64,000 nucleotides of DNA from Patescibacteria group bacterium (GTDB taxonomy: Bacteria > Patescibacteriota > Minisyncoccia > Minisyncoccales > RBG-13-36-15), in the NCBI GenBank assembly GCA_018609195.1, contig JAHCSE010000001.1, positions 9,559-73,558 on the forward strand. Direction: 5' to 3'. A program made the translations under genes and the position numbers. Positions 2,209-37,498 of the stretch are shown here, in pieces (the first letter of the stretch is position 1; every line of letters begins with the position of its first letter). Under the pieces are notes generated by a model. It was not told the origin of the DNA, did no database searches, and worked only from the letters and a program-made list of their open reading frames with translations.

Positions 2209-2932
2209 ATTTTTTCGTGATCACATTCCATCTTATTTGGAAAACCTCAAAAAGCATCTTTATCATTCCTTTCAGTTTTACCTTGCTTTCAGGATCATTA
2301 ATCCACTTTACCGGGATCTCTTTTACTTTATAACCTAATGTCTTAGCTATTACTAAAATTTCAACATCAAAAGCCCAGCGATTAATTTTACATTTTGGTA
2401 AAATATCATCTACCGCCTTTTGTGTAAATCCTTTAAAACCACATTGAGTATCCCAAATCCCCCACAAGCCAGAAACTACCTGAACAATTAAATTAAAAAT
2501 ATCCCCCAATCTCCTTCTTATGAAAGATTGAGGAACAGCAATGACAGCTCCCTTGATATCTCTCGACCCAATAACAACTTCAAAACCCTTTTCAAGCTCT
2601 GGCCACATTTTCTCAACTTGATCAATAGAAGTAGCATTATCAGCATCAGTAAACAATCTGTACTCCCCTTTTGCCTCTAACATTCCTTGCCTTACCACAA
2701 AACCTTTCCCATTATTTTCTTTATTATCAATCAATCTCAGATTTTTTATTCGACTTTGTAAATTTTTTACAACTTCGGCAGTCTTATCTTTTGAGCCATC
2801 ATTAACCACAACTATCTCAGAATCATAATTTTGCTTTCTTAAATACTTATCAATCTCAGTCAAAGTTTTTGGCAAACGCCTTTCTTCATTATAAACAGGA
2901 ATGATAACGGATAAATAAGTTCTATTTGGCAT
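2201..2932 (-). CDS. family 2 glycosyltransferase (polyprenyl-phosphate hexosyltransferase-like)
   Basis: 243 aa with SVIIPVYNEE, VVNDGSKD and TDADN (DxD), indicating a GT-A fold. Confidence 0.8.
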   Translation of the reverse strand: MPNRTYLSVIIPVYNEERRLPKTLTEIDKYLRKQNYDSEIVVVNDGSKDKTAEVVKNLQSRIKNLRLIDNKENNGKGFVVRQGMLEAKGEYRLFTDADNATSIDQVEKMWPELEKGFEVVIGSRDIKGAVIAVPQSFIRRRLGDIFNLIVQVVSGLWGIWDTQCGFKGFTQKAVDDILPKCKINRWAFDVEILVIAKTLGYKVKEIPVKWINDPESKVKLKGMIKMLFEVFQIRWNVITKKYG

Positions 2933-2970
2933 TAGATTATTTTAGCACAAAAATTTTTAGAAACAAAAAC

Positions 2971-2995
2971 GGGGCGTTCAGCTAGCTGACACCCC
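2971..2995 (-). terminator. intrinsic terminator of small gene 3019..3246
   Basis: GGGGCGTTCAGC/GCTGACACCCC hairpin followed on the minus strand by GTTTTTGTTT. Confidence 0.6.
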
Positions 2996-3018
2996 TTTTA
3001 AGATAGGTATTTTGTGAA

Positions 3019-3246
3019 TTAGAAGGTGATGAGATAGATCTGATCCCCTCTCGGTGTTTTACAGGATTTCACTTCACGGTACTTATCGGCGAAGAATACT
3101 CGAATCCACTTTATTGCTTGGAGTGCATCATCATCAGGATTGCCTTTATTTGGCTCAGCGCTCATTGAAAGCGTTACATTGCCAGGTCTATCATGCTGGA
3201 CTACTTGAACTCGGAGCTGAACTGTCTTGTCGAACAAAACTGTCAT
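3019..3246 (-). CDS. hypothetical small protein (75 aa), cassette 1
   Basis: ORF with strong SD (AAGGAGGT 8 nt before ATG), its own TTGACA-N17-TATATT promoter and its own terminator. Locally GC-richer than the flanks. No family recognised. Confidence 0.55.
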   Translation of the reverse strand: MTVLFDKTVQLRVQVVQHDRPGNVTLSMSAEPNKGNPDDDALQAIKWIRVFFADKYREVKSCKTPRGDQIYLITF

Positions 3247-3309
3247 TCCCAGAACCTCCTTTTCTCCTCTGCCAAATGATCAGGACTTATGGAATTTTGT
3301 GCTGATTGT

Positions 3310-3338
3310 AATATAATCTATTGTTATAATTCTGTCAA
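3310..3338 (-). promoter_or_regulatory. sigma70-like promoter of cassette 1
   Basis: Minus strand TTGACA-gaattataacaatagat-TATATT. Shares AATAGATTATA and the leader AGCACAAAWTTCCA with the promoter at 3710..3738. Confidence 0.6.
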
Positions 3339-3347
3339 TAAAAAAAT

Positions 3348-3373
3348 GGGGCGCTCAGCCACTCGAGCGCCCC
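3348..3373 (-). terminator. intrinsic terminator of small gene 3422..3655
   Basis: Perfect 9-bp stem GGGGCGCTC/GAGCGCCCC followed by a T-run on the minus strand. Confidence 0.7.
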
Positions 3374-3421
3374 TTTCGGATGTGAACCCATTTTAGGCCT
3401 GGGTGAAGGATGAGAGATTTC

Positions 3422-3655
3422 TTATCTTCTTTTCCCGAACTCTAACTCTTTTGTTATAACAGCTATCGCTTCCTCCCTGTTTTTAGCAAATCTTATCGTC
3501 TGACCGGAGACCCAGGCAGTCCATGGGCGCTGGCGCCAAGAGTAATGCGTTATACCAGTAAAAAATTCCCTCGGGAAGTTTTGCATTTGTTCCTTAGTAG
3601 GGTCTTCAATGATTTTTATCGTCCTCCCAGCCACTATTATCTCTCCTGGCTGCAT
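3422..3655 (-). CDS. hypothetical small protein (77 aa), cassette 2
   Basis: ORF with purine-rich SD (GGAAAGGGAGAG), its own promoter and terminator. GC-richer than the flanks. No family recognised. Confidence 0.55.
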   Translation of the reverse strand: MQPGEIIVAGRTIKIIEDPTKEQMQNFPREFFTGITHYSWRQRPWTAWVSGQTIRFAKNREEAIAVITKELEFGKRR

Positions 3656-3709
3656 TTCTCTCCCTTTCCTATCTATAAAATGCAGGGCGTGGAAATTTGT
3701 GCTAACTTC

Positions 3710-3738
3710 CCTATAATCTATTATTCCAAATTTGTCAA
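3710..3738 (-). promoter_or_regulatory. sigma70-like promoter of cassette 2 (inside the 3' end of map)
   Basis: Minus strand TTGACA-aatttggaataatagat-TATAGG, homologous to the promoter at 3310..3338. Confidence 0.5.
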
Positions 3739-4470
3739 TACTCGGCTGCCATTTTTTGTTACCGCAATTGTTTGTTCAAAATGGGCTGAAAGAGAACCAT
3801 CTTGAGTTTCATAGCCAAACCCATCTTTTGTTTTTTTAAGTTTCCAATCCCCTATTGTTACCATAGGTTCAATGCAAATTACCATACCTTCTTTTAGCTC
3901 AATTCCTTTATGTCTTTTCCCATAGTTTAAAATTTTTGGGTCCTCATGTAATTCTTTGCCAATTCCGTGGCCACAGAGTTCTCTTACTACATTGTATCCT
4001 TGAGATTCCACATATCTTTGAATGGTATTTGAGATATCCCCTATGGTATTTCCTGGCCTTACTTTTTTAATTCCTCTTTTTAAAGCCTTTTTTGTTACTC
4101 TTATTAATCGTAATGTTTCCGGATTAACTTTTCCTACTGGTAAGGTCACCGCCATATCATTGTGAAAACCCTTATATAAAATCCCCAAATCCAAAGTTAA
4201 AACATCTCCTTCTTTCAAAACTCGATTAGAAGGAACAGAATGGACAATCTCTTCGTTGATTGAACTACAGAGACAGGTTGGAAAACCTTCATATCCTTTG
4301 AAAGAACATTTCCCCCCATATTTTAAAATCAGGCTCTCTGCGAGCCTGTTCAGTTCTTTAGTCGTTATTCCCGGTCTTACTTTCCCTATCAATTCTTTCA
4401 TTATCTTGCCAAGAATTTTTCCACCTTCTGTCATGATTTGAATTTCTTCTGAGGATTTAATCGTTATCAT
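3721..4470 (-). CDS. map: methionine aminopeptidase type I
   Basis: 249 aa with pita-bread motifs DLGILYKGFHNDMA, CGHGIG and ICIEPM. Canonical position after adk. Confidence 0.92.
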   Translation of the reverse strand: MITIKSSEEIQIMTEGGKILGKIMKELIGKVRPGITTKELNRLAESLILKYGGKCSFKGYEGFPTCLCSSINEEIVHSVPSNRVLKEGDVLTLDLGILYKGFHNDMAVTLPVGKVNPETLRLIRVTKKALKRGIKKVRPGNTIGDISNTIQRYVESQGYNVVRELCGHGIGKELHEDPKILNYGKRHKGIELKEGMVICIEPMVTIGDWKLKKTKDGFGYETQDGSLSAHFEQTIAVTKNGSRVLTNLE

Positions 4471-5159
4471 TTTAAAGCCTTTAAAATATCTTGAAAAACT
4501 GCCTCCACCGATTGTTCGCCATTAACTTCTTTTATTTGTAATCCGTGTTTTTTGAAATAATCTATCAAAGGAAGTGTTCTTTCTTGATATTCTTTTAATC
4601 TAACTTTAATCACTTCTCTGGTATCATCCTTACGAATTATTAATCTTGAACCATCTAAGGGACATTTTCTCAATTTGGCGGTTTCTTGTGTATACAAAAT
4701 CGGATGGCGCATTAACTTACAGATTCTTCTTCTTGTGCCTCTCCAGATAGATTGTTCTGGGCTTAATGTGATAAGAATTATTTTTATATTTGAGGCCTTA
4801 TATAATTTTTTTAGAAAAGGGGTAACTTCTTTCCCTTCGTATAGAGTCCGAGGAGAGCCGGCTATCGACAGTCCCTTCCCCACCTTTGCTAGTTCTTTAA
4901 TCTTATTTTTTATCCAAAAAACAATTAAAGGAGGACTCATTAGTTTTCCCCTCTCTCGCATTTTTTTTTCTTCAATTAAAAAATATTTCTTTCCTTTAAC
5001 AATAATAAAATCGTCTTTTTTAATATTTTTTAAATTAGCGTCGATAATCCTACTTGTCTCCAAGTAATACAAATTCAATTTCTCAGCTAATAACTCAGCT
5101 TGGGTCCCTTTCCCAGATCCCGGCGGCCCTAATAATATAATCACTTGTTTATTACTCAT
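4467..5159 (-). CDS. adk: adenylate kinase
   Basis: P-loop GPPGSGKGTQ and a LID segment. Canonical secY-adk-map order. Confidence 0.88.
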   Translation of the reverse strand: MSNKQVIILLGPPGSGKGTQAELLAEKLNLYYLETSRIIDANLKNIKKDDFIIVKGKKYFLIEEKKMRERGKLMSPPLIVFWIKNKIKELAKVGKGLSIAGSPRTLYEGKEVTPFLKKLYKASNIKIILITLSPEQSIWRGTRRRICKLMRHPILYTQETAKLRKCPLDGSRLIIRKDDTREVIKVRLKEYQERTLPLIDYFKKHGLQIKEVNGEQSVEAVFQDILKALK

Positions 5160-5178
5160 TACTTTCTTTTTGAGAACA

Positions 5179-6465
5179 TTAAAAAGTTTCGTATTCTCGC
5201 ATTTGAAGTTGGGCTCTGACTTGACGCATAGTCTCTAAAACCACTGAAACCACAATAAGCAAGGCTGTCCCCCCCACCAGAAACTGGAAAAGCACCACCC
5301 CAGTTATACCTTGAACAATAATGGGTAAAACGGCAATTGTCCCTAAAAATAAAGCCCCAATTAATAAGATTCGATTTAAAACATAATATAAAAAGTTGGC
5401 GGTTGAAGGTCCTGGCCTGATGCCTGGGATAAATCCTCCCATTTTTTGCAAATTAGAGGAAATGGCTTTGGGGTCAAAGGTGACAGCTGTATAAAAATAG
5501 GTAAAAAGGCCGACTAAAAGAAAATAGAGAATTCCGTAACTCCAAGGGTTTCTGGCAGGGTCCACAATACTTCCTATGGTTTGAGCTATATTTGAAATCA
5601 TACCTTCCCCACCCGCTAAAAAACTGGCAATCATTCCTGGGAAAAGTAAGATAGATAAGGCAAAAATGATTGGAATAACACCAGCTGGATTGATATTTAA
5701 GGGTAAATAGGTGGAAACACCACCGTACATTCGCATACCCCTGACTCTTTTTGCATAAGAAACCGGAATATTTCTTCTGGCCTCATTTACTAAAACCACT
5801 CCGGCAATAATAGCTAAGGCCCCAGCAAAAAAGAGCAAATAGGCGGGAATCCTTGAAGGATCATAAGTAATAATCAGTTGGCGGATATTATTTGGAAGAG
5901 CAGAAACAATCCCAGCAAAAATTAAAAGGGAAATACCATTGCCAATCCCTTTTTCTGAGATTAACTCCCCGAGCCACATTAAAAAAACAGCTCCAGCAGC
6001 GACAGTCAAAAGAGAAGTTAAAAGAGAGATTGGAGAAAGAGTCCCAATAATATTTTGACGCTGAAGTAAAATGAGAAGCCCGTACCCTTGAAGAGTAGCG
6101 AAAGGAACAGTTAAAAGGCGCCCATATTGATTAAATTTTTGGCGCCCCGTCTCCCCCTCCTCTTTATAAAGCTTCTCTAGCTGAGGAAAAATCATTGTGA
6201 GCAACTGCAAAATAATAACTGAAGTAATATAAGGCCCCAATCCCAGCATGATAATGGAAAGGTTATCAAGGGCACCGCCGGTAAAAATATTTAATAATCC
6301 CAAAAGTTGATTGGCCTCAAAAAATTCCCTCATTCTTGCGAGATCAATTCCTGGAATAGGAATATTAGCCATTATTCGAAAAATGACAAAAATTCCCAAG
6401 ATAAACAAGATTTTGTTGCGGAGATCACGGATCTTAAATATTTGGATGATTTTTTGATACCACAT
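5179..6465 (-). CDS. secY: preprotein translocase subunit SecY
   Basis: 428-aa polytopic membrane ORF directly after rplO, with typical SecY N-terminus and length. Confidence 0.95.
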   Translation of the reverse strand: MWYQKIIQIFKIRDLRNKILFILGIFVIFRIMANIPIPGIDLARMREFFEANQLLGLLNIFTGGALDNLSIIMLGLGPYITSVIILQLLTMIFPQLEKLYKEEGETGRQKFNQYGRLLTVPFATLQGYGLLILLQRQNIIGTLSPISLLTSLLTVAAGAVFLMWLGELISEKGIGNGISLLIFAGIVSALPNNIRQLIITYDPSRIPAYLLFFAGALAIIAGVVLVNEARRNIPVSYAKRVRGMRMYGGVSTYLPLNINPAGVIPIIFALSILLFPGMIASFLAGGEGMISNIAQTIGSIVDPARNPWSYGILYFLLVGLFTYFYTAVTFDPKAISSNLQKMGGFIPGIRPGPSTANFLYYVLNRILLIGALFLGTIAVLPIIVQGITGVVLFQFLVGGTALLIVVSVVLETMRQVRAQLQMREYETF

Positions 6466-6468
6466 GTT

Positions 6469-6900
6469 TTATTTTATTACGCCTCCTGCTTTCTCAATTT
6501 TCTCTTGAGCTTGCTTTGAAACCTGACATTCTTCAATTGATAACTTTTTTGTCAGTTTCCCTTTTCCTAGAATTTTAACCTGGGGCAATCTTCCTTTTAT
6601 TTTACGAAATATTCTTTTCTCATGCAAGACTTTAGGAGTAATTGTATCTCCCTCTTTAAATTTTTTTTCTAAAATTTCAACATTAATTACAGTTGGTTTT
6701 AATTGAAAACTCTTAAATCTATATCCTCTCAATTTTGGATACCTTTTTATCAATTCTCGAATAATGGGCTTTAATCTTCTGCCTGCTCTCGATTTTTGAC
6801 CTTTCATTCCCTTACCAGAATAAGTTCCGCGTTTACCCCCTCGGCCAACGCGCTTTTTTCTCTTTCTTTTATAATTTGGTTTTAGCTGATGAAGTTGCAT
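6469..6900 (-). CDS. rplO: 50S ribosomal protein L15
   Basis: KRVGRGGKRGTYSGKGMKGQKSR motif; position in the spc operon. Confidence 0.93.
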   Translation of the reverse strand: MQLHQLKPNYKRKRKKRVGRGGKRGTYSGKGMKGQKSRAGRRLKPIIRELIKRYPKLRGYRFKSFQLKPTVINVEILEKKFKEGDTITPKVLHEKRIFRKIKGRLPQVKILGKGKLTKKLSIEECQVSKQAQEKIEKAGGVIK

Positions 6901-6975
6901 AAATAATGGCTAAATGGCTCAATGGTTAAATGGTTATTTTTAACATAGCCATGTAGCCATTTAACCATGTAACCA
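6901..6975. repeat. degenerate short tandem/inverted repeat spacer (AATGGYTAAATGG units)
   Basis: aatggctaaatggctcaatggttaaatggtta ... tagccatgtagccatttaaccatgtaaccatt. Occupies the slot where rpmD (L30) normally lies. Confidence 0.7.
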
Positions 6976-7449
6976 TTATCTCGGTGCTTTTAACTGTTTT
7001 AACGCCTCGATGGTCGCTCTCGCATTATTCAACTTATTGCTTGTCCTTCCCAGAATCTTTGATGAAACATTTTTTATTCCAGCTAAAGTACAAATCACTC
7101 TTACTGTTCCTCCTGCTACCAGTCCCCTTCCTCTTCTTTGAGGTTTCAATAAAACTTTAGCTGGCCCAAATTTAGCATAAACTTCATGGGGAATAGTATC
7201 TTCAACAATGGGAATGGTAATTAAATTTTTCTTAGCTAATCTGGTAGCTTTTTCAATGGCTTGAGCAACATTAAGGCCTTTCGCCACTGCCACCCCAATT
7301 TTCCCTTCTTTATTACCAGTCACCACCACTGCCCGAAAGCTAAAACGCCGACCACCGGCTGTCACCCGAGTCACTCGAGCCAAATCTAAAAGCTTTGATT
7401 CAAATTCTTCCTTTTTTTCTTCTGCAATTATTTCTACCATATAGAACAA
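6976..7449 (-). CDS. rpsE: 30S ribosomal protein S5
   Basis: RVTRVTAGGRRFSFRAVVVTGN and GIKNVSSKILG motifs. Confidence 0.93.
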   Translation of the reverse strand: MFYMVEIIAEEKKEEFESKLLDLARVTRVTAGGRRFSFRAVVVTGNKEGKIGVAVAKGLNVAQAIEKATRLAKKNLITIPIVEDTIPHEVYAKFGPAKVLLKPQRRGRGLVAGGTVRVICTLAGIKNVSSKILGRTSNKLNNARATIEALKQLKAPR

Positions 7450-9199: not shown

Positions 9200-9757
9200 C
9201 TATGTTTTAATTGGGAATCCCAGCGACTTTAACAACTCTATTCCCTCCTCTTTGTTTTTAGCTGTCGTAACCACAGTTATTTCCAAACCGAAATTTAATT
9301 TTGTTTTTTCTGGGGATATTTCCGGAAAGGCAATATGTTCTCGAATACCTATAGTTAAATTTCCTTTTTTATCAACAGAATTTGAATTAATCCCCCGGAA
9401 ATCTCGGGATCTAGGTAGGACAATATTAATTAATCTTTCTAAAAAATCATACATTATTTTTCTTCTCAGGGTGGCTTTCGCTCCTATTGGCTGGTCTTTT
9501 CTAATTCTAAAACCAGAGATTGGCTTTTTAGCCTTACTCAAAATAGGCTTTTGTCCGCAAATTAAAGCTAAATCATTCAAAATACTGTCTGCAATTTTCT
9601 TTTGCTCCTCTGATGTTTTACCAGCTATAAATTTACCAAAGCCAGTATTGACTATCACTTTCTTAATGTTAGGAACAGCCATAGGATTTTTGTAGCCAAA
9701 CCTCTCTTTCATAGCCGGTATCACCTCTTTTTGATACTTTTCTTTTAAACTAAGCAT
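9200..9757 (-). CDS. rplE: 50S ribosomal protein L5
   Basis: 185 aa; PRSRDFRG and [11 protein letters not shown] motifs; operon position. Confidence 0.92.
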
Positions 9758-30594: not shown

Positions 30595-30657
30595 CTTGTT
30601 TAGGATAACAAAAAAAATCTCTTGAGCCAAGAGTTATTTCGTTCTTTTTAATTTAAA

Positions 30658-30679
30658 CTGCCCTTTTATAAAAGGGCAG
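30658..30679 (-). terminator. terminator after cobO
   Basis: CTGCCCTTTTATAAAAGGGCAG palindrome. Confidence 0.55.
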
Positions 30680-30731
30680 TCTTTGTTACATTTATTGGTA
30701 AGCTCTCGATGGTTTTACTTTTTCGTACCAT

Positions 30732-31253
30732 TTAGTATTCAACCCCTATTTTTGCTAAAACCCCTTTTTTAAAAGGGTGTTTTATTTCTTTACATTCAGT
30801 TGCCAAATCAGCAATCTTAATTAACTCTTTGGGGGCACCTCTCCCAGTAAGAATTAAATCTACTTCAGAAGGAGCTTTTTTTAGAATTTCCAAGACTTCT
30901 CTTAATTTAATGAGATTTAAAGAGATGGCAACATTTACTTCATCTAAAATTATCAAGTCAAATTCTCCAGAATGAATCGCATTTTTGGCAATTTTTAAGG
31001 TCTCTCGGGCTGCAAGTTCGTGAACTTCTCGGGGAAGCTTGTCCCCCATTATCCCAACAAAACCTTCTCCGCCTTTTATCAATTGAAATTTTGGTTCTAG
31101 GCTTTGGATGGTCTTTTCCTCGCCAGTTGGCCATTTTTTACTTTTAATGAACTGAATCATCAAAACTCGCTTTCCCTGGCCAACTGCCCGAATTCCCTGG
31201 CCAATGGCAGCTGTCGTTTTCCCTTTTCCATTCCCAGTAAAAACAAAAATCAT
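30732..31253 (-). CDS. cobO: ATP:cob(I)alamin adenosyltransferase (CobA/CobO/BtuR type)
   Basis: 173 aa; P-loop GNGKGKTTAA and ILDE motif. Overlaps nrdJ by 4 nt. Confidence 0.85.
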   Translation of the reverse strand: MIFVFTGNGKGKTTAAIGQGIRAVGQGKRVLMIQFIKSKKWPTGEEKTIQSLEPKFQLIKGGEGFVGIMGDKLPREVHELAARETLKIAKNAIHSGEFDLIILDEVNVAISLNLIKLREVLEILKKAPSEVDLILTGRGAPKELIKIADLATECKEIKHPFKKGVLAKIGVEY

Positions 31254-33553
31254 GTTTGAGGTATTTGAGCAGGTACACTCCCTTCTTCAGAGTCAAACTC
31301 ACACACACCTCCTACACAGGCTAACTCTTTGAAACCTGTGGTTTCATCTTCTTTCTCATAAACGATAATCTGGGCAAAGTCAACTTTTGGTAGTTTCTCT
31401 ACCAGTTCTTGATATTTTTCCTCATCGATTTCCTCGTAGGGAGCAAGTCGATAGACATGTTCTGCGCGTGGAATAAAAGAGAGCCCTCCTAAAATATTCC
31501 AGTTATCATAAAGCCAGTATGTAGCTTGAATCCACTCGTTCTCACCTACAGAAACGGTAACTGAGGGATTATGCTCGGTGAAATTTTCCTTCACCATCTT
31601 CCAGTGTCTAAGTTGATCGAGTGCTGTTAAATCATTTCGGAAAACAGCTCTCTCGGGAGATTTTACTGGAAACTCAAGCACAAAGGTCGTGGCCGAGTCC
31701 TCGAGCTGTCCAACTTCAGGATGATATGGAAATTTTTGTTCTTTCAACATTTGGAAAAGAGGGTCATTTGCCGATATACGAACTCGTCTAATATAAAAGG
31801 GAGAGTGTCGAGGGTGCATACCAGAGGCAGCATCCACAAGTTGAGATAATGTACCTGAAGGTTTGACACAGGTGATGCAGGTTGATTCCGAAATCCCAAA
31901 TTTCTTGGCATATTCACGATTGATTTCGAGCGATCTTTCCCGAAGTTTCCTGAGGGTTTCGGCTGATCTAGCTGCAGGACAATCCCACTGACCGGTTATC
32001 GAAATTCCTAAAAGCCTTTCCTCCTCGCAGTTTTGCTTCCATTCTTTTGAAAGATAAGAAAAATTGGTGAGAGTAGATTGATAGGTACCGAGCAAGGTGG
32101 CGATTTCGATCTTTTTCAGAAGAGATTCTTCAGTATCCTCGGGTCTGGCCACTACCTCGGTTAAATTGCAAAATTGTTTGGATCTTAATATAATTTCTCC
32201 GCATGGATTTGTGCCGGCAGTGGCCCAATATTTTTTAAATGTCTTCCAGCGCCTCTCTGGTAATTGATGTTTTAATCCTCCTCTATTAAAAATGCCTCTC
32301 TCGCCAGTTCCACTTTTAGCGAGCGCTAACCATTCTTCAAGAAACTGGATTGCGCTGGGTTTCTCATTATAAACCGCGGAGTTGTTGGCCATCGATCTCT
32401 GAGGATCAGTAACATAAAACTGGCCAGCTTTAGCTCCCCTCATATCTTCATCGTCGAGATCAGAAAGGGATATTAAAGCAGATCTTCGCACTCCACCCAT
32501 CACTACAATTTCCCCAATTTTGCAGATAATGTCATGAACATCAAGATTGGAGAGGCGTTTTCCTTGACGACTCAAAACTTTAGAGCGAACAAAATCTAAA
32601 AGTGATTTAAGTGCCCCAGGGCCTGAACTTCGACCTCCCATGGTCTTTAACTTTGATCCTGCTGGCCGAATCTTGGAGTAATCAAATATAATATCTTTAC
32701 CATTATACCAGGCTTTAAGTCCGATAGTTAACGCATCTCCCCATCCCTCTTTGCTGTCTAAAATTACATGGGCAGGTAATACTTGACCGGTCTGGCGTTT
32801 CACAATTGGTAGCTGCTGGACCGTTTGACTCTCCACTGAGAAGCCAACTCCTGTACCGCACATTAAAAGATATATAATTTCAGCAAAATCACGAAACTCG
32901 CTTGGTGCAATAAAAGAACAGTTATACACTGAGACATTGGAAGCCCTCGCTGCTTTCCCGGCAGCCCATAAAAGTCTCATCGATGGCATCACTTGATGAT
33001 TTAGGATTGCCTCTTTTATTTCCTGGTATTCGTTATCTCTTAACTTCTTGCCAAGATTCTCTCTCATGAAATCCACATAGCGATTGACCGTCTCAATCCA
33101 GGTTTCTCTCCTTCCCTCCTCTTCAATCCAGCGAGAATAAGTACGATAATAAATAAACTCAGCCAGCTCATTCCTGAAATATTTCCTACTCTTTCGCACA
33201 AGACCCTGCACCCGCTCGGGAATTAACTTCTTTTTTTCCCGAACTTCAGCTCTTGCTTGCCGATAGAGAATGTAAGCTTTTGCTGTCTTTGGAAAATCTC
33301 TCAGAATCAGAGTTTCTTCTACTAAGTCTTGAGTCCCCTCCACTTGAGGAATGTGAGGAGGAGGATAACGCTTCTCGAGTTTTTTCACTACCCTGTCTGA
33401 AATTCGAAGAGGATCTCGCGAAAGATTCCCTTCCCCAGCAGCTTGCATTGCTTTGGAGATTGCATTGGTAATTCGATTTTGGTCAAACGGAACAATATTG
33501 CCTTCTCTTTTTCGAATTTCTTTAATTTTATTTTTCAATTTTGGAAGCTGCAT
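31250..33553 (-). CDS. nrdJ: class II (adenosylcobalamin-dependent) ribonucleotide reductase with N-terminal ATP-cone
   Basis: 767 aa; ATP-cone (VRKREGNIVPFDQNRITNAI), TNPCGEI active-site loop, C-terminal Cys pair. Confidence 0.88.
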   Translation of the reverse strand: MQLPKLKNKIKEIRKREGNIVPFDQNRITNAISKAMQAAGEGNLSRDPLRISDRVVKKLEKRYPPPHIPQVEGTQDLVEETLILRDFPKTAKAYILYRQARAEVREKKKLIPERVQGLVRKSRKYFRNELAEFIYYRTYSRWIEEEGRRETWIETVNRYVDFMRENLGKKLRDNEYQEIKEAILNHQVMPSMRLLWAAGKAARASNVSVYNCSFIAPSEFRDFAEIIYLLMCGTGVGFSVESQTVQQLPIVKRQTGQVLPAHVILDSKEGWGDALTIGLKAWYNGKDIIFDYSKIRPAGSKLKTMGGRSSGPGALKSLLDFVRSKVLSRQGKRLSNLDVHDIICKIGEIVVMGGVRRSALISLSDLDDEDMRGAKAGQFYVTDPQRSMANNSAVYNEKPSAIQFLEEWLALAKSGTGERGIFNRGGLKHQLPERRWKTFKKYWATAGTNPCGEIILRSKQFCNLTEVVARPEDTEESLLKKIEIATLLGTYQSTLTNFSYLSKEWKQNCEEERLLGISITGQWDCPAARSAETLRKLRERSLEINREYAKKFGISESTCITCVKPSGTLSQLVDAASGMHPRHSPFYIRRVRISANDPLFQMLKEQKFPYHPEVGQLEDSATTFVLEFPVKSPERAVFRNDLTALDQLRHWKMVKENFTEHNPSVTVSVGENEWIQATYWLYDNWNILGGLSFIPRAEHVYRLAPYEEIDEEKYQELVEKLPKVDFAQIIVYEKEDETTGFKELACVGGVCEFDSEEGSVPAQIPQT

Positions 33554-34122
33554 TATTTTATTGTACCAAATTTTGTTTTGGGCAACAAAATGGCTCTCTT
33601 TAATAGATAGTATATGAGTCTTTTATTCAAAACGAACTCGTAAACTCCGAAAAACAAGGTGACATAGAAAAGATTTCCTAAAATTGTATTTTTAAAAAAT
33701 AGTAAAGCCATGTAATAAGAAAGAAGCAATCCAGAAAGATCCTCTGGATACCAAGGGGTAAAAGCCCAGACAGCAAAATTAGTGATGAGATAAAACAATA
33801 GCGCTGCAAATAAAGAACTACTCAATATCATTCCCGGGCCTTTGTGTTTCCTCAACCAAAGGCCTATTAGACCGATTATACCAAAGCTCCCATATACTGC
33901 AATCATTAATTTTAAGCTATAAAACCCGATAAAATAATCACTTATCAACATGGCGAGAAGAGGCGCAACCAAGAAATACTTTTTTCTAAGATAAACACCG
34001 CCAAACAAAGAAATAGCTGCAATGGGAGCAAAATTAGGGGGGTGGGGCAAAAGCCTTAGACTCACTCCGATGATAATTAAGACCAATACACCTAAAATTT
34101 CTAAAATTTTTTCTTTTTTCAT
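33553..34122 (-). CDS. ECF-S-component-like membrane protein (DUF6580-type); putative corrinoid transporter by context
   Basis: 189 aa, about 6 TM helices, LLPHPPNFAPI motif. Translationally coupled to nrdJ. The function is an inference. Confidence 0.5.
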   Translation of the reverse strand: MKKEKILEILGVLVLIIIGVSLRLLPHPPNFAPIAAISLFGGVYLRKKYFLVAPLLAMLISDYFIGFYSLKLMIAVYGSFGIIGLIGLWLRKHKGPGMILSSSLFAALLFYLITNFAVWAFTPWYPEDLSGLLLSYYMALLFFKNTILGNLFYVTLFFGVYEFVLNKRLIYYLLKRAILLPKTKFGTIK

Positions 34123-34805
34123 TTATTTTTTAGGGATACTTTTTGTATATTCATATACATTAGCGAATCTTTTGCATGCTTCGAATAAACATTTATATGA
34201 ATGCTTTTCTTAAATGGTGGCCCATCTACAACCATGGTATGATACTCCCCTTGTTCCCCACAAATATCAAGCCCCGTTTCGGCATTTATTGCCCGCAACC
34301 GCTCTAAAGAATCCTTCTTAAGTTCCATTCCAAGCAAATTATCATCCGTAAACCAAGGTTTCTTTATACAAGTAAAAATTAATTTAAATCTGTATGAAAG
34401 AAGTCGATTAAGAAGTTCTAATCTATCACGTCCCCACAGTGGAGTTAGGACACCAATACCTGAATATTTACTGCATTCTCTTACCCAATTAGGGTGGCCA
34501 TCAACTTCTGCAATATCGCCAGTTATTAATGTAGCTATTCCGTGTTTTTCTTTTAAAGAATGAATAGCTTTTTCATAGCTTTCTTTGAATGGCTCATTAA
34601 CCTCCAATGCATAATGTGGAATACCCAAAGCTTCTGCTTGATATTTCATAAAACTAAGAGGATGAGCAAGAAATTCTGGTTCACTGGGAATGAACGTAAC
34701 TAGACTTATAACTCTATATCCCAACAACTTTGCTTCATAAAGAGCCAAAGAAGAATCTTTCCCACCAGTCCACGATACGGCTGCGTTCCTCATCACTTTA
34801 TTCAT
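34119..34805 (-). CDS. Dph6/MJ0570-type PP-loop ATP pyrophosphatase
   Basis: 228 aa with SWTGGKDS PP-loop. Paralog of 26823..27479. Confidence 0.7.
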   Translation of the reverse strand: MNKVMRNAAVSWTGGKDSSLALYEAKLLGYRVISLVTFIPSEPEFLAHPLSFMKYQAEALGIPHYALEVNEPFKESYEKAIHSLKEKHGIATLITGDIAEVDGHPNWVRECSKYSGIGVLTPLWGRDRLELLNRLLSYRFKLIFTCIKKPWFTDDNLLGMELKKDSLERLRAINAETGLDICGEQGEYHTMVVDGPPFKKSIHINVYSKHAKDSLMYMNIQKVSLKNK

Positions 34806-34829
34806 AATTTAATAATTCCCAATTTTATA

Positions 34830-35297
34830 TCATTCAAATTGAGATTGAAAAAATTTCCATTCTACGATATCTCCATCTTCTAACTGAAACTGGCTTGCTC
34901 CAACTTGCGCGTATTCATTGTTGACCCAATACTGCCAGTATTTATTATCTTTACCATTTTCTTTATCACCAATTTGTTTAATAAAGGAGCCAAATTCTGG
35001 GTGCAAATCATAATCTAACGCAAAAGGATTTTCTGTATCACTTGAGCAAATCTCTAATAAATCAAGTACAGTTCTTTTTTCTTTTAGTTTCTGATTATTG
35101 CAAGTGATAATTTTCCCATCTGAAAAATCAAGCATCAAAGAAACACTAATTTCTTCTTTTGGTTGAACAGATTTCTCAAAATCTTGAACTGGAGGAGGCG
35201 CAATCTCTCCTTGAAAAATAAAAGAGCCTGCTGTTAAACCTAAAGCAAAACCAGCTCCGAAAATGATGATAGTTTTCATTCCATTAAACATCTTCAT
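34830..35297 (-). CDS. membrane-anchored DUF4430 (transcobalamin-beta-domain-like) protein, putative B12-binding
   Basis: 155 aa; N-terminal TM helix; YWQYWVNNEYAQVGASQFQLEDGDIVEWKF C-terminus typical of DUF4430. Confidence 0.65.
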   Translation of the reverse strand: MKMFNGMKTIIIFGAGFALGLTAGSFIFQGEIAPPPVQDFEKSVQPKEEISVSLMLDFSDGKIITCNNQKLKEKRTVLDLLEICSSDTENPFALDYDLHPEFGSFIKQIGDKENGKDNKYWQYWVNNEYAQVGASQFQLEDGDIVEWKFFQSQFE

Positions 35298-35308
35298 AGA
35301 AATAAAAA

Positions 35309-35605
35309 TTAAAATCGAGGAATTAAACTCATAATTCCTTTCGAACCAACTAAAACGGCAGCAATCAGGAAAAGGAAGTTAGGAAGAACTACCCAAAAAC
35401 TTAAGAGAAGCAATCCTCCTCCCGTAATATCCATCAGGCCTCCGATATCTAAGGGAAAAAGAAAACCTTTTATCAATAAATAGCCCCCGAAAATAATTAA
35501 AATGAGTAGAGAAACATCCACTTGAAAGGCTCTTGATAATAATAAGCCTGCACTCGCGATGTCCATTAATCCCAAGGAGAACATAAAAGAAATTAAAAAT
35601 CCCAC
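35309..35605 (-). CDS. small polytopic membrane protein (98 aa)
   Basis: First ORF after the cobalamin riboswitch. GTG start (an alternative ATG lies 7 codons in). About 3 TM helices. Confidence 0.5.
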   Translation of the reverse strand: MGFLISFMFSLGLMDIASAGLLLSRAFQVDVSLLILIIFGGYLLIKGFLFPLDIGGLMDITGGGLLLLSFWVVLPNFLFLIAAVLVGSKGIMSLIPRF

Positions 35606-35679
35606 CTCGAGTGGGATGGAAACTCCCCAAGCTTAGTCGCTTGGGTTGGCCTTTCCCTTTGCTCGAAGGTAGAGGTTAA

Positions 35680-35826
35680 AAAAATGTGTCCTCCTCCGTT
35701 AAAACTTTGGAGGACATGGATGGCATTCTGACTTTCACAGTTACGGCATAGTCCCGGATTTCCTGCCCGCATCGCTATACGAAGTATTGCAGGCGGGTCA
35801 CCGGAGTTCCCCATCCGTTTTCAAAG
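35680..35826 (-). promoter_or_regulatory. cobalamin riboswitch with terminator expression platform
   Basis: Sense strand: GGATGGGGAACTCCGGTGA...GGAAATCCGGGACTATGCCGTAACTGTGAAAGTCAGAATGCCATCC (B12-box-like AGTCAGAATGCC; P1 stem GGATGG/CCATCC). This is followed by the hairpin TGTCCTCC...GGAGGACA and T7. Confidence 0.78.
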
Positions 35827-35837
35827 TCCGTTAATAA

Positions 35838-35867
35838 ATAATATCAGCTTGCACGAAGTAGTGTCAA
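35838..35867 (-). promoter_or_regulatory. sigma70-like promoter of the riboswitch operon
   Basis: Minus strand TTGACA-N18-TATTAT just upstream of the aptamer. Confidence 0.6.
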
Positions 35868-35915: not shown

Positions 35916-36494
35916 CTAAATTTTACCTACTAATTTTAATCCGGGTTTTAAGGTTCTCTTTCCAGGTTCCCAACTGGCTGGGCAAACCAATCCTTTGTGT
36001 TCTCTGACAAATTTAGCTGCCTGCAATTTTCGTAAGATTTCTTTGACCGATCTGCCAATGCTATTGTTGTGCATTTCAAAAGCTTTAAGCTGACCATCAG
36101 GATCAATAATGAAAGTTCCTCGTAAAGAAAGACCTTCTTTTTCAATGTAGGTACCAAATTCTTGGCAAAGCTTTCCCGTTGGATCAGCTACCATCGGGAA
36201 TTTAATCTTTTTAATCGAAGGAGAATTATCATGCCAGGCCTTATGTACAAAAGCCGTATCGGTGCTCACACTTAAGATCTCTGCTCCCAATTTCTTAAAT
36301 TCAGAATAATATTTCGCAGCTTCTTCTAATTCTGTTGGGCAAACAAACGTAAAATCAGCAGGATAAAATAGCAATATAATCCATTTTCCCTTGTAATCAG
36401 AAAGTTTAATTTTTTTTATTTTTCCACTATGAAAAGCTTCCAACTCAACATCAGGTACTTTTTGATCAATTTTAACCATAGTTTTGTTAAACAA
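35916..36494 (-). CDS. 2-Cys peroxiredoxin (AhpC/Prx1 type)
   Basis: 192 aa; FTFVCPTEL peroxidatic Cys motif and a resolving Cys (GLVCPASW). Confidence 0.9.
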   Translation of the reverse strand: MFNKTMVKIDQKVPDVELEAFHSGKIKKIKLSDYKGKWIILLFYPADFTFVCPTELEEAAKYYSEFKKLGAEILSVSTDTAFVHKAWHDNSPSIKKIKFPMVADPTGKLCQEFGTYIEKEGLSLRGTFIIDPDGQLKAFEMHNNSIGRSVKEILRKLQAAKFVREHKGLVCPASWEPGKRTLKPGLKLVGKI

Positions 36495-36588
36495 TTTTAA
36501 TTTTTATTGCGACCTTTTACCCCGTTAGAAATTTGTTCTTTCTACACTTTCTCCATTGTATTTGGTATTTCTAACGGGGTTTACTTTA

Positions 36589-36957
36589 TTAAATAAATAT
36601 TATTTTCCCTAAAACTAAATTTTTATTCACTTGACCAAAATTTTTACTCGATTCTGACCAGGAAACAGTGCCTTCTACAAAATAAAAATTATTTTTTATT
36701 TCTTTCACTTTTTTCACAAATATTTCTTTTCGGTTTTTTGGGTTTTGAAAAACAATAAAATCAGAAACTTTGGGTTTCAACAAATTAGTGGCCAAATACC
36801 TTTTCTCCGGAACTAAATTTGGCCAAGCTGATTCCCCTTCAACTTTTACCAGAAAAATCAATCCCAAAATTTTAGTAAAGTTTATCAGTGATTTCTTTAT
36901 AGGATTTAAATCTCTCTGGGACATTTTTAACCTCATAGAAGATTTTCGCAATTTCAT
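36589..36957 (-). CDS. sodX: S26-family peptidase, Ni-SOD maturation protease SodX-like
   Basis: GESAWP (catalytic Ser) and FVKKVKEI (Lys) motifs. Immediately downstream of sodN. Start uncertain because the ORF overlaps the sodN 3' end. Confidence 0.6.
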   Translation of the reverse strand: MKLRKSSMRLKMSQRDLNPIKKSLINFTKILGLIFLVKVEGESAWPNLVPEKRYLATNLLKPKVSDFIVFQNPKNRKEIFVKKVKEIKNNFYFVEGTVSWSESSKNFGQVNKNLVLGKIIFI

Positions 36958-37345
36958 CTACTGCATCTAATAATTTCTTGGCAGCTGTTTCATTTACTTC
37001 CTGTTTATTTTGAGAGCAAAGTTTTACTGCCTTCCAGAAAAGTTCATGAAGATTAGGAAACTTCTCGAGATGTTCTTCTTTGAAGAAATCAGACCACAAA
37101 ATCTCAAGTTCCTTTTTGCAAAGCTCTGCATGGTCTTCCTTATTTTTGATTCTTCTTGCCACGCTATTGAAATACTGCAAAAGAGAGTCTTTGTCCATAA
37201 TATCTCTTGGTAATTCCAATTCCTTCAATTGTTGAATCATCCTGGCAACGGTTTTCGCAGCAATTTTGGCAGGAGTAGGTTCATAAATTGCACAAGGAAT
37301 ATCACAATGCGCTTGAGCTATAATTTTTGGAAAAAAATTCATCAT
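36872..37345 (-). CDS. sodN: nickel superoxide dismutase precursor
   Basis: MMNFFPKIIAQA pro-peptide followed by the HCDIPCAIYEP Ni-hook. Start trimmed from the track ORF, whose extension crosses an upstream hairpin. Confidence 0.82.
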   Translation of the reverse strand: MMNFFPKIIAQAHCDIPCAIYEPTPAKIAAKTVARMIQQLKELELPRDIMDKDSLLQYFNSVARRIKNKEDHAELCKKELEILWSDFFKEEHLEKFPNLHELFWKAVKLCSQNKQEVNETAAKKLLDAVDEIAKIFYEVKNVPERFKSYKEITDKLY

Positions 37346-37498
37346 AATCTTCGATCTATTTAAAGGAAAACTGACCTCGACCTTTCCCCCCACCACTTCT
37401 GCACTCGCTTTATGATACTTGTGCCAAAGGCACAAGTAGAAAAGTGGTGGGGGGTTTATCTAAGATTTTTATCATTTTGAATAAAAAAATCAAGTTTT

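Follow-up and report, generated by a model that had tools for sequence, protein, structure and literature searches.

A 64,000-nt stretch of bacterial DNA (contig JAHCSE010000001.1, forward-strand positions 9,559 to 73,558; hereafter the window, whose numbering is used throughout) carries on its minus strand a promoter, a riboswitch leader and six head-to-tail open reading frames (ORFs). These elements probably make up a single six-gene unit, headed by an OFF-type class-II corrinoid riboswitch, that would hold everything a cobalamin (B12) scavenger needs for a B12-dependent ribonucleotide reductase (RNR). We base this reading on sequence elements and their conservation, on stem covariation and energetics, and on folds and synteny. 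Each part of the unit is of a known kind. What is new is their arrangement, conserved across a small patescibacterial clade: an apparently repressing B12 riboswitch joined to a Lactobacillus-like uptake–reductase–adenosyltransferase cluster, in which a membrane protein of the DUF6580 family replaces the transporter CbrT.

In the literature consulted, B12 riboswitches repress synthesis, uptake and B12-independent isozymes, and B12-dependent pathways are left untouched or are activated (PMC10327014, PMC545781, PMC3848588). A B12-dependent enzyme placed under a repressing B12 switch is therefore unusual. If the reading is true, cofactor supply and the client apo-enzyme are regulated as one unit, which fits a minimal-genome organism scavenging every corrinoid molecule. 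The DNA has a GC content of about 37%; the nearest relatives that carry a name belong to the Patescibacteria (Candidate Phyla Radiation), Nealsonbacteria being one example.

Layout of the gene unit

The promoter, the aptamer, a hairpin followed by a run of seven T and the gene set were all found on the minus strand at the positions given in an earlier note on this DNA. The sigma-70-type promoter, TTGACA-N18-TATTAT with a TG extension (35867-35838), matches the consensus at 11 of 12 positions, and the transcript probably starts a few bases 5′ of the aptamer. The pattern alone is not rare, with five matches in the window against 2.7 expected. A TTGACA −35 box, however, stands at an equal distance from the aptamer in L083, L086, L087, L112, L115 and L213 (labels of this kind denote loci from other genomes that were compared with the window), and this conservation upstream of the relatives' aptamers upholds the promoter as first called.

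The genes encode, in order, a small membrane protein of 91 aa (35584-35309), a membrane-anchored DUF4430 protein (35297-34830), a PP-loop ATPase of the DUF71-B12 subfamily (34805-34119), the DUF6580 membrane protein (34122-33553), a class II RNR (nrdJ, 33553-31250) and a cobalamin adenosyltransferase (cobO, 31253-30732). Their packing is as tight as had been claimed (gaps of at most 24 nt, or overlaps): the successive junctions are an 11-nt gap, a 24-nt gap and overlaps of 4, 1 and 4 nt. In the sequence TAATG the DUF6580 stop codon and the nrdJ start codon thus share 1 nt, and the end of nrdJ and the start of cobO have 4 nt in common. Seven genes had been counted originally; we count six: a further 73-aa ORF (35814-35593), annotated as a gene in the public record, overlies the riboswitch and was dropped as spurious. 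Identities were assigned by Pfam and NCBIfam profiles. Among the names given before, DUF4430, nrdJ and cobO were retained, the Dph6-like ATPase became a DUF71-B12 protein and the 'ECF-S-like' protein was assigned to the Pfam family DUF6580.

At the far end of the unit, the terminator search returned two hairpins (30680-30657, and 30633-30619 followed by U8) within the region 30610-30680. Candidates for an internal terminator were confined to weak hairpins at 33749-33729 and 35423-35403, and convincing terminators occur only after cobO. No recognisable Shine–Dalgarno sequence precedes any of the eight start codons inspected (the six genes of the unit plus thiI and prx), the upstream regions being A/U-rich.

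The cobalamin aptamer

A class-II cobalamin (corrinoid) aptamer occupies positions 35834-35712 of the minus strand. The Rfam match (35827-35713) is the sole riboswitch of that database in the window, a lower-scoring overlapping match of the same clan having been suppressed, and it scored 39.1 bits with RF01689 (AdoCbl-II, clan CL00101) against a gathering score of 36.5, with E = 9e-6 over the 64-kb window. The earlier note had proposed a scan with RF00174; the Rfam match confirms a cobalamin aptamer, but the best clan member is RF01689, and RF00174 was rejected as the family. Homologous aptamers in L083 and L087 scored 56.4 and 51.2 bits with RF01689. The more modest score in the window can be ascribed to a hairpin inserted in the L4 loop (about 36 nt, 35797-35762; Rfam places 40 nt where its model has 4) and to a poorly aligned P1.

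The core (GGGAA...GGUG), L5 and the B12 box are all present. P3 reads GGAUGG/CCAUCC, L5 is GCC(G), the B12 box is AGUCAGAAUGCCAUCC, P6 is minimal (CUG-UGAAAGU-CAG, with no extension) and J1/3 is 7 nt long. For P1 the best candidate is GGACUU/AUGUCC, with 4-5 pairs and −5 kcal/mol. The register of the Rfam alignment, ACUUUG/CAUGUC, contains three non-pairs and was set aside; GGACUU/AUGUCC suits a 7-nt J1/3 better, yet is still weak.

Two features of the aptamer vary among the loci compared. Variable-length L4 insertions, shorter than that of the window, occur across several phyla (L005, L011, L033, L046, L059, L066, L071 and L086), and such an insertion depresses Rfam scores: the L086 aptamer was missed even at E up to 0.1, and that of L213 fell under the gathering score. 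A P6 extension hairpin of about 70 nt is present in the aptamers of L213 (aptamer at 1028-1153) and L086 (about 6830-7025), as against the minimal P6 of the window and L083. Near-identical cores therefore differ in P6, so that a feature used to separate the classes of cobalamin riboswitches flips within one clade.

The expression platform

Between the aptamer and the first start codon the leader holds two terminator-like hairpins, the second of which is conserved. This second hairpin, T2 (35617-35594), is an intrinsic terminator of the form AUCCCAC-UCGAG-GUGGGAU followed by U5, identified by terminator search and by covariation. A tract of U5 to U9 follows the terminator in all leaders, and the start codon of the first gene lies 15 nt after the start of the T2 U-tract. 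Upstream of T2 stand a short hairpin with the stem CCUU/AAGG and an invariant CGAGCA loop (35670-35655), whose stem covaries among 13 leaders, and a spacer hairpin B (CCCAAGC/GCUUGGG, 35645-35626), which all relatives possess but which varies among them in sequence and length. As the RF01482 model spans the short hairpin in L003 and L009, we identify it as P13, the element whose loop L13 normally kisses the aptamer loop L5.

Covariation of P13 and the terminator was assessed on 13 leaders and duplex energies on 15. In the alignment of 13 sequences, six pairs of the P13 and terminator stems changed on both sides and 86% of cells were paired, as against 37-61% in slid controls; none of 500 shuffles reached the observed covariation score. 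P13 has a second possible partner: its 5′ half plus loop (YCUUCGAG) is complementary to the T2 loop and its flanks (CUYGRR), and this pairing would serve as an antiterminator. In the window the antiterminator is worth −15.0 kcal/mol, compared with −9.0 for T2 and −2.7 for P13, and was matched by 3 of 300 shuffles; it is also the minimum-free-energy fold of the platform. Across the 15 leaders its energy runs from −7 to −15 kcal/mol (equalled by 0-17 of 300 shuffled controls) and in every one of them it beats P13 alone (−0.9 to −6.1 kcal/mol). Of the cells in the antiterminator columns, 94.5% are paired; slid controls give 35-54%. L019, L025 and L013 use another register, in which GCAAAG faces a CUUUGC or CUUUGU terminator loop, so pairing between P13 and the terminator again seems to be needed. 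A candidate kissing loop between L5 (uGCCG) and L13 (CG(A)GC), with a bulged A, can be drawn in 13 leaders; in L009, L5 uUCCG is joined by L13 CGAGAA, the sole compensatory change of this kind. A bulged kissing loop has a precedent in env8 (PMC10327014).

These features bear on the sign of regulation. An ON-type platform had been put forward as one way to understand a B12-dependent reductase behind a B12 switch. In the activating cobT riboswitch of A. halodurans, P13 and the terminator share sequence (PMC10327014), whereas here they stand about 35 nt apart, with hairpin B between them, and have no bases in common. This layout is that of the repressing design tested by mutagenesis in the same study and not of the activating one, from which we infer that the platform is OFF-type. 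The leader thus most likely acts as a repressing transcription-termination device. A role of the terminator 3′ arm as a Shine–Dalgarno sequestor was set aside because no gene of the unit has a Shine–Dalgarno sequence.

The T7 hairpin that the earlier note took for the leader terminator does exist, as the first of the two terminator-like hairpins (T1, 35716-35678; UGUCCUCC/GGAGGACA, then CA and U7; −13.1 kcal/mol), but the conserved terminator is T2. A hairpin occupies the T1 position in L083, L086, L213, L011 and L020 as well. No U-run follows it in any of these five, where AUUAUACUUUAACC, CAAUAUAUUUAACC or similar stands instead. Since the relatives keep the hairpin without the U-run, T1 appears to be a structural linker whose U-run was gained in this genome only; constitutive attenuation by T1 is a possibility. 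The 3′ strand of the candidate P1 (AUGUCC) overlaps the 5′ arm of T1, with GUCC in common, and a fold in which P1 is forced is about 12 kcal/mol less favourable than the free fold with the hairpin.

Linkage of nrdJ and cobO to the riboswitch

Judging by gene order and junctions, one transcript most likely carries nrdJ and cobO along with the uptake genes. The same riboswitch stands ahead of DUF6580–nrdJ in five leaders (the window, L083, L086, L087 and L213), and cobO follows nrdJ in every closest relative whose contig extends far enough. The order DUF6580–NrdJ (with its ATP-cone)–CobO recurs in L083-L085, L086, L087, L213, L214 and, in part, L026, as far as the contigs reach. In L083 the riboswitch lies 3′ of DUF4430 and directly before small membrane protein–DUF6580–NrdJ–CobO, so that the switch there precedes the reductase unit rather than the binder. 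Together, the TAATG overlap, the terminators after cobO and this synteny back the proposal of the earlier note that the operon headed by the riboswitch extends to nrdJ and cobO.

No promoter-like site with at least 9 of 12 matches was found on the operon strand in the 570 nt upstream of nrdJ (33553-34122), and the number of such sites in the whole region, 14, is close to the 14.8 expected by chance. In relatives the gap before nrdJ measures 33-165 nt (87 nt in L083 and 165 nt in L087). In the more distant Patescibacteria L016, L032 and L041, cobO lies upstream of the riboswitch, which controls only DUF4430–DUF6580.

A metagenome scan with the pattern TTAACN{6,8}CTTCGAGCAAAG gave 120 matches, 13 of them with an aptamer-core pattern at most 260 nt upstream. 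L123 and L179 look like chance, and the other 11 include two loci already in the set and two duplicate platforms. The scan added no nrdJ operon, and its remaining matches are chance occurrences in coding DNA.

Three observations on these leaders and loci stand apart from the question of linkage. A second riboswitch with the same platform, about 1.4 kb 3′ of DUF6580, heads another gene beyond DUF4430–DUF6580 in several Patescibacteria (L112, L118, L133, L186 and L204). In L003, L005 and L011 the first riboswitch-controlled gene encodes a secreted protein. Just inside the first gene of the window, 3′ of both leader terminators, lies a promoter-like TGGACA-N18-TATTAT (10 of 12 matches, 35565-35536, minus strand); were it active, DUF4430 and the later genes would escape the riboswitch, and its presence is within the chance expectation for the region.

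The reductase and the adenosyltransferase

Profiles from Pfam and NCBIfam identify the nrdJ product as a class II, adenosylcobalamin (AdoCbl)-dependent RNR, probably of the RTPR type, that carries an extra ATP-cone at its N terminus. The best sequence match in the PDB is 1L1L, the AdoCbl-dependent triphosphate reductase (RTPR) of L. leichmannii (E = 7e-48). The TIGR02505 score, 297 bits, lies under the equivalog cut-off of 340; the NPCGE loop and the C-terminal CxxxC cysteine pair are present. No second RNR was found in the 64-kb window. The cobO product is a CobA/CobO/BtuR-type ATP:cob(I)alamin adenosyltransferase (PF02572, E = 1e-57) that scores 173.2 bits with TIGR00708 (cut-off 167.75) and has the P-loop GNGKGKTT. 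In L214, a gene for a thioredoxin-reductase-like flavoprotein (4660-5661) follows the DUF4430–DUF6580–NrdJ–CobO unit and is likely to supply reductant to the reductase.

Putative uptake and salvage proteins

The 91-aa membrane protein encoded directly after the riboswitch has no Pfam or NCBIfam match. Its homologues were found in L083-L085 only, where they again stand directly after the riboswitch.

The DUF4430 protein (PF14478, E = 8e-13, 49 bits versus 23.8) has an N-terminal membrane anchor. Its AlphaFold model matches the beta domain of transcobalamin, intrinsic factor and haptocorrin (E = 1e-6 to 3e-5), with a TM-score of 0.78 against the isolated beta domain. The match of the model to cobalamin-binding beta domains agrees with the B12-binding fold that had been attributed to DUF4430, and makes the protein a candidate extracytoplasmic corrinoid binder and counterpart of CbrS. 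In L087, a 754-aa protein encoded between DUF4430 and DUF6580 (2599-4863) gives a weak squalene-cyclase-like (alpha/alpha toroid) match and could correspond to the alpha domain of transcobalamin.

The PP-loop ATPase belongs to Diphthami_syn_2 (PF01902, E = 2e-36). It was rejected as Dph6, scoring 121.6 bits against the equivalog cut-off of 197.3 and reading EQGEYH where Dph6 has EGGE/DxE; the histidine of this motif marks the DUF71-B12 subfamily. On these grounds the enzyme is predicted to act in corrinoid salvage or remodelling. At a distance of 7 kb from the operon, and without a riboswitch, stands the gene of a second DUF71-B12 paralogue of 218 aa (27479-26823, minus strand; 34% identical to the operon copy, with the canonical motif ENGEYH). 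That a reduced genome has two such genes suggests that their products catalyse different corrinoid-related reactions.

DUF6580 is assigned to PF20221 by Pfam (E = 1e-45), and not to PF12822. The top Foldseek match of its model (pLDDT 84) is BtuM with hydroxycobalamin (8OVV; probability 1.00, TM-scores 0.56/0.60), followed among PDB folds by S-components of energy-coupling factor (ECF) transporters. The family profile has one sequence match in the PDB, to the B12 S-component CbrT of L. delbrueckii (6FNP_A), and it is weak (E = 0.032). No conserved cysteine is present among the invariant or near-invariant columns of 26 sequences; His27, in a PHPPNF motif, is invariant. DUF6580 is thus a candidate corrinoid transporter with a modelled S-component fold. 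The earlier note had remarked that ECF A/T components are missing from the neighbourhood. No ABC ATPase with both Walker A and LSGGQ is encoded within the 64-kb window, and the remark finds an answer in the modelled fold, whose best match, BtuM, works without an ECF module.

Genomic context points the same way. In loci of the diderm phyla Ignavibacteriota and Bacteroidota, a cobalamin riboswitch is followed, with slight variation in order, by a TonB-dependent receptor, DUF71-B12 and DUF6580; L033 has in addition a BtuF-like binding protein beside the TonB receptor, DUF71-B12 and DUF6580. Here DUF6580 takes the slot expected for an inner-membrane B12 transporter. DUF4430 is directly upstream of DUF6580 in 33 of 80 species-level loci; within the same set, CobO lies at most 2.5 kb away in 13 and an RNR-like gene at most 5 kb away in 11. 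The family occurs in Patescibacteria, Ignavibacteriota, Bacteroidota and other phyla, and a search through 8 million papers found no mention of it. We predict that DUF6580 is an S-component-type corrinoid importer working with DUF4430 binders and DUF71-B12 enzymes.

Comparison with known systems

The closest known system is the nrdJ–cbrS–cbrT–pduO cluster of Lactobacillales (ECF-CbrT; PMC5997447), in which the same functional set is adjacent. The loci that we retrieved read RTPR–DUF4430 (one or two copies)–CbrT–PduO-type adenosyltransferase. DUF4430 stands there at the place of cbrS, so CbrS is a DUF4430 protein. The two systems differ in several respects. In the Lactobacillales cluster nrdJ comes first, the membrane protein belongs to PF12822 and the adenosyltransferase is PduO-type, as opposed to DUF6580 and a CobO-type enzyme here; genes for a DUF71-B12 protein and a small membrane protein, both part of the window operon, are absent. 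CbrT needs an ECF module, and none was seen in the 64-kb window. No cobalamin riboswitch was detected in two Lactobacillales loci (L208 and L211) at E up to 0.1.

The platform resembles that of Priestia megaterium metE (PMC10327014), in which a kissing loop stabilises P13, an antiterminator between P13 and the terminator is stronger than P13, and an intrinsic terminator follows. The strands that pair are not the same, however: metE joins the 3′ side of P13 to the 5′ arm of the terminator, and the window leader joins the 5′ side and loop of P13 to the loop and flanks of the terminator. The window leader further differs from metE in its proposed bulged-A kissing loop, in its class-II aptamer with an L4 insertion and in the regulation of a B12-dependent enzyme. 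With env8-type class-II riboswitches (RF01689) it shares the core, the lack of a P6 extension and the 7-nt J1/3; it departs from them in the 40-nt L4 hairpin, the weak P1 and the extra linker hairpin between aptamer and P13. Moreover, env8 is a translational riboswitch (PMC10327014), whereas the platform in the window is transcriptional, with a terminator.

BtuM of Thiobacillus denitrificans, the best structural match of the DUF6580 model, is a solitary S-component and a small B12 importer that needs no ECF module (PMC6072759). Its gene lies beside that of BtuB in diderms; in a similar way, the DUF6580 gene comes after that of a TonB-dependent receptor in L033, L047 and L066. The two proteins are 17% identical, with no match at the sequence level. 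The axial cobalt ligand Cys80 defines BtuM chemistry (PMC6072759), and membership of DUF6580 in the BtuM family was rejected because the 26 sequences have no conserved cysteine.

For the salvage enzyme, the DUF71-B12 subfamily of COG2102 was predicted in 2012 to act in B12 salvage, a histidine replacing the catalytic Glu of Dph6 in E-x-G-E-[FY]-H (PMC3541065). As in that work, the gene in the window is found beside B12 transport genes; it reads EQGEYH rather than ENGE[FY]H, and its neighbour is DUF6580 rather than BtuCDF or CbiB.

In the canonical control of RNR genes, a B12 riboswitch represses the B12-independent nrdAB or nrdDG and leaves nrdJ alone (PMC545781, PMC3848588). There the corrinoid level determines, through a B12 riboswitch, which reductase is made or how much of it, and a link of this kind is proposed for the window too. 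The logic in the window would be the opposite, the B12-dependent enzyme itself being placed behind a repressing switch. Known corrinoid riboswitches are all described as repressing biosynthesis, uptake, B12-independent isozymes or other functions (PMC10327014). Our literature search, whose coverage is incomplete, returned no report of a cobalamin riboswitch ahead of nrdJ, and only the opposite logic. Nor did it turn up a report that the L. leichmannii reductase is derepressed at low B12.

Proposed mechanism and alternative explanations

We propose the following role for the riboswitch and its genes. When free corrinoid is scarce, the weak P13 would open and its UUCGAG would pair with the terminator loop and flanks (35617-35599); with this antiterminator formed, RNA polymerase would read through all six genes. 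The membrane-anchored DUF4430 protein would then capture corrinoid outside the cell, DUF6580 would import it, perhaps together with the small membrane protein, and the DUF71-B12 PP-loop enzyme would salvage or remodel it. CobO would adenosylate the corrinoid, and the RTPR-type NrdJ would use the product. Corrinoid bound to the aptamer would lock P13 through the L5–L13 kissing loop, allowing the terminator to form and stopping most transcripts before the first gene. In such a scheme, binder, importer, salvage enzyme, adenosyltransferase and apo-reductase would rise together at low free corrinoid and would all be cut back when saturation of the reductase lets free cofactor accumulate, with leaky read-through and protein stability then sustaining deoxynucleoside triphosphate synthesis. 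Because the switch would sense only the free ligand pool, the operon would be a supply-and-demand governor, and repression of a B12-dependent enzyme by B12 would be no paradox. Among the options raised in the earlier note, a 'homeostasis logic' is the one that best suits an OFF platform over one unit.

Several observations weigh against this reading. The window aptamer is just 2.6 bits over its threshold and its P1 is weak. The L5–L13 kissing loop is a candidate with a single compensatory example. Since P13 contributes an invariant strand to the antiterminator, the pairs of the latter vary on one side only (G-C to G-U), so that this pairing is conserved without proof by covariation. The stable T1 could terminate transcription constitutively, or be relieved by ligand through its overlap with P1, and neither behaviour would be that of a simple OFF switch. 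The latter case leads to a leader with two terminators of opposite sign: T1 would form with an empty aptamer and be prevented by a ligand-held P1 (ON), T2 would be ligand-induced (OFF), and expression would occur mainly at intermediate corrinoid, or show net activation if T1 dominates. We consider this very improbable. The GUCC shared by the P1 3′ strand and the T1 5′ arm speaks for it, as does the resemblance of a hairpin with U7 to an intrinsic terminator, but P1 has only 4-5 pairs and the roughly 12 kcal/mol needed to force it favour the hairpin, the five relatives that keep the hairpin do so without a U-run, and a 14-nt loop and a 2-nt spacer before the U-run argue for low efficiency. The band-pass device that would follow, with an operon on at intermediate corrinoid and silent at either extreme (nothing to import, or a saturated reductase), is if anything more doubtful still. 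We know of no single natural riboswitch leader that acts as a band-pass with terminators of opposite sign.

The remaining points concern the ligand and the extent of the regulated unit. Class-II cobalamin aptamers range from AdoCbl-selective to methylcobalamin-selective, J1/3 being decisive (PMC6158498), and the corrinoid form that is sensed is thus not readable from class membership. It is conceivable, although on balance unlikely, that the ligand of the aptamer, as of some class-II members, is not adenosylated (aquo- or methylcobalamin) or is an incomplete corrinoid, so that the operon would respond to unprocessed corrinoid and not to coenzyme B12. An aptamer without a P6 extension that matches RF01689 would be in keeping with this, as would the range of selectivity within the class; against it, selectivity does not follow from class membership, L213 and L086 bear a long P6 on a near-identical core, so that the clade is not uniformly 'minimal', and repressing cobO at high unprocessed cobalamin makes less physiological sense than repression by AdoCbl. 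We assign a similarly low probability to a riboswitch that governs the uptake and salvage genes only, with nrdJ and cobO transcribed also or mainly from a promoter inside the DUF6580 coding region, in which case the reductase would not be meaningfully repressed by B12. Internal promoters had been offered as an option in the earlier note, with a search upstream of 33553. None with at least 9 of 12 matches lies on the operon strand in 33553-34122 of the window, but the 165-nt gap before nrdJ in L087 contains TTGACA-N18-TAGAAT; some relatives may therefore have extra nrdJ promoters, and one is also conceivable in the window, where weak internal promoters would be possible in an AT-rich genome that lacks Shine–Dalgarno sequences. 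L083 has an 87-nt gap before nrdJ, and in L214 the order DUF4430–DUF6580–NrdJ–CobO occurs with no detectable riboswitch. Furthermore, cobO is near DUF6580 on the same strand in 13 of 80 species-level loci and upstream of the riboswitch in L016, L032 and L041, the loci in which the relative position of the two could be judged, so its linkage to the switch is not universal. In the window, however, the TAATG overlap leaves no gap, promoter-like hits are at chance level and lacking at this threshold in 33553-34122, and the junctions suggest translational coupling. These points favour one six-gene unit under the riboswitch.

Genes upstream of the riboswitch

Directly upstream, on the same strand (35916-37435), lie genes for a Ni-superoxide dismutase (SodN), a small S26-like (SodX-type) peptidase and a peroxiredoxin. 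SodN and SodX hold the same upstream position in L083, L086 and L213, and a peroxiredoxin gene precedes the riboswitch in L087. Between the peroxiredoxin stop codon and the riboswitch promoter of the window there is just a weak AU-rich hairpin, and read-through from these genes into the leader is possible.

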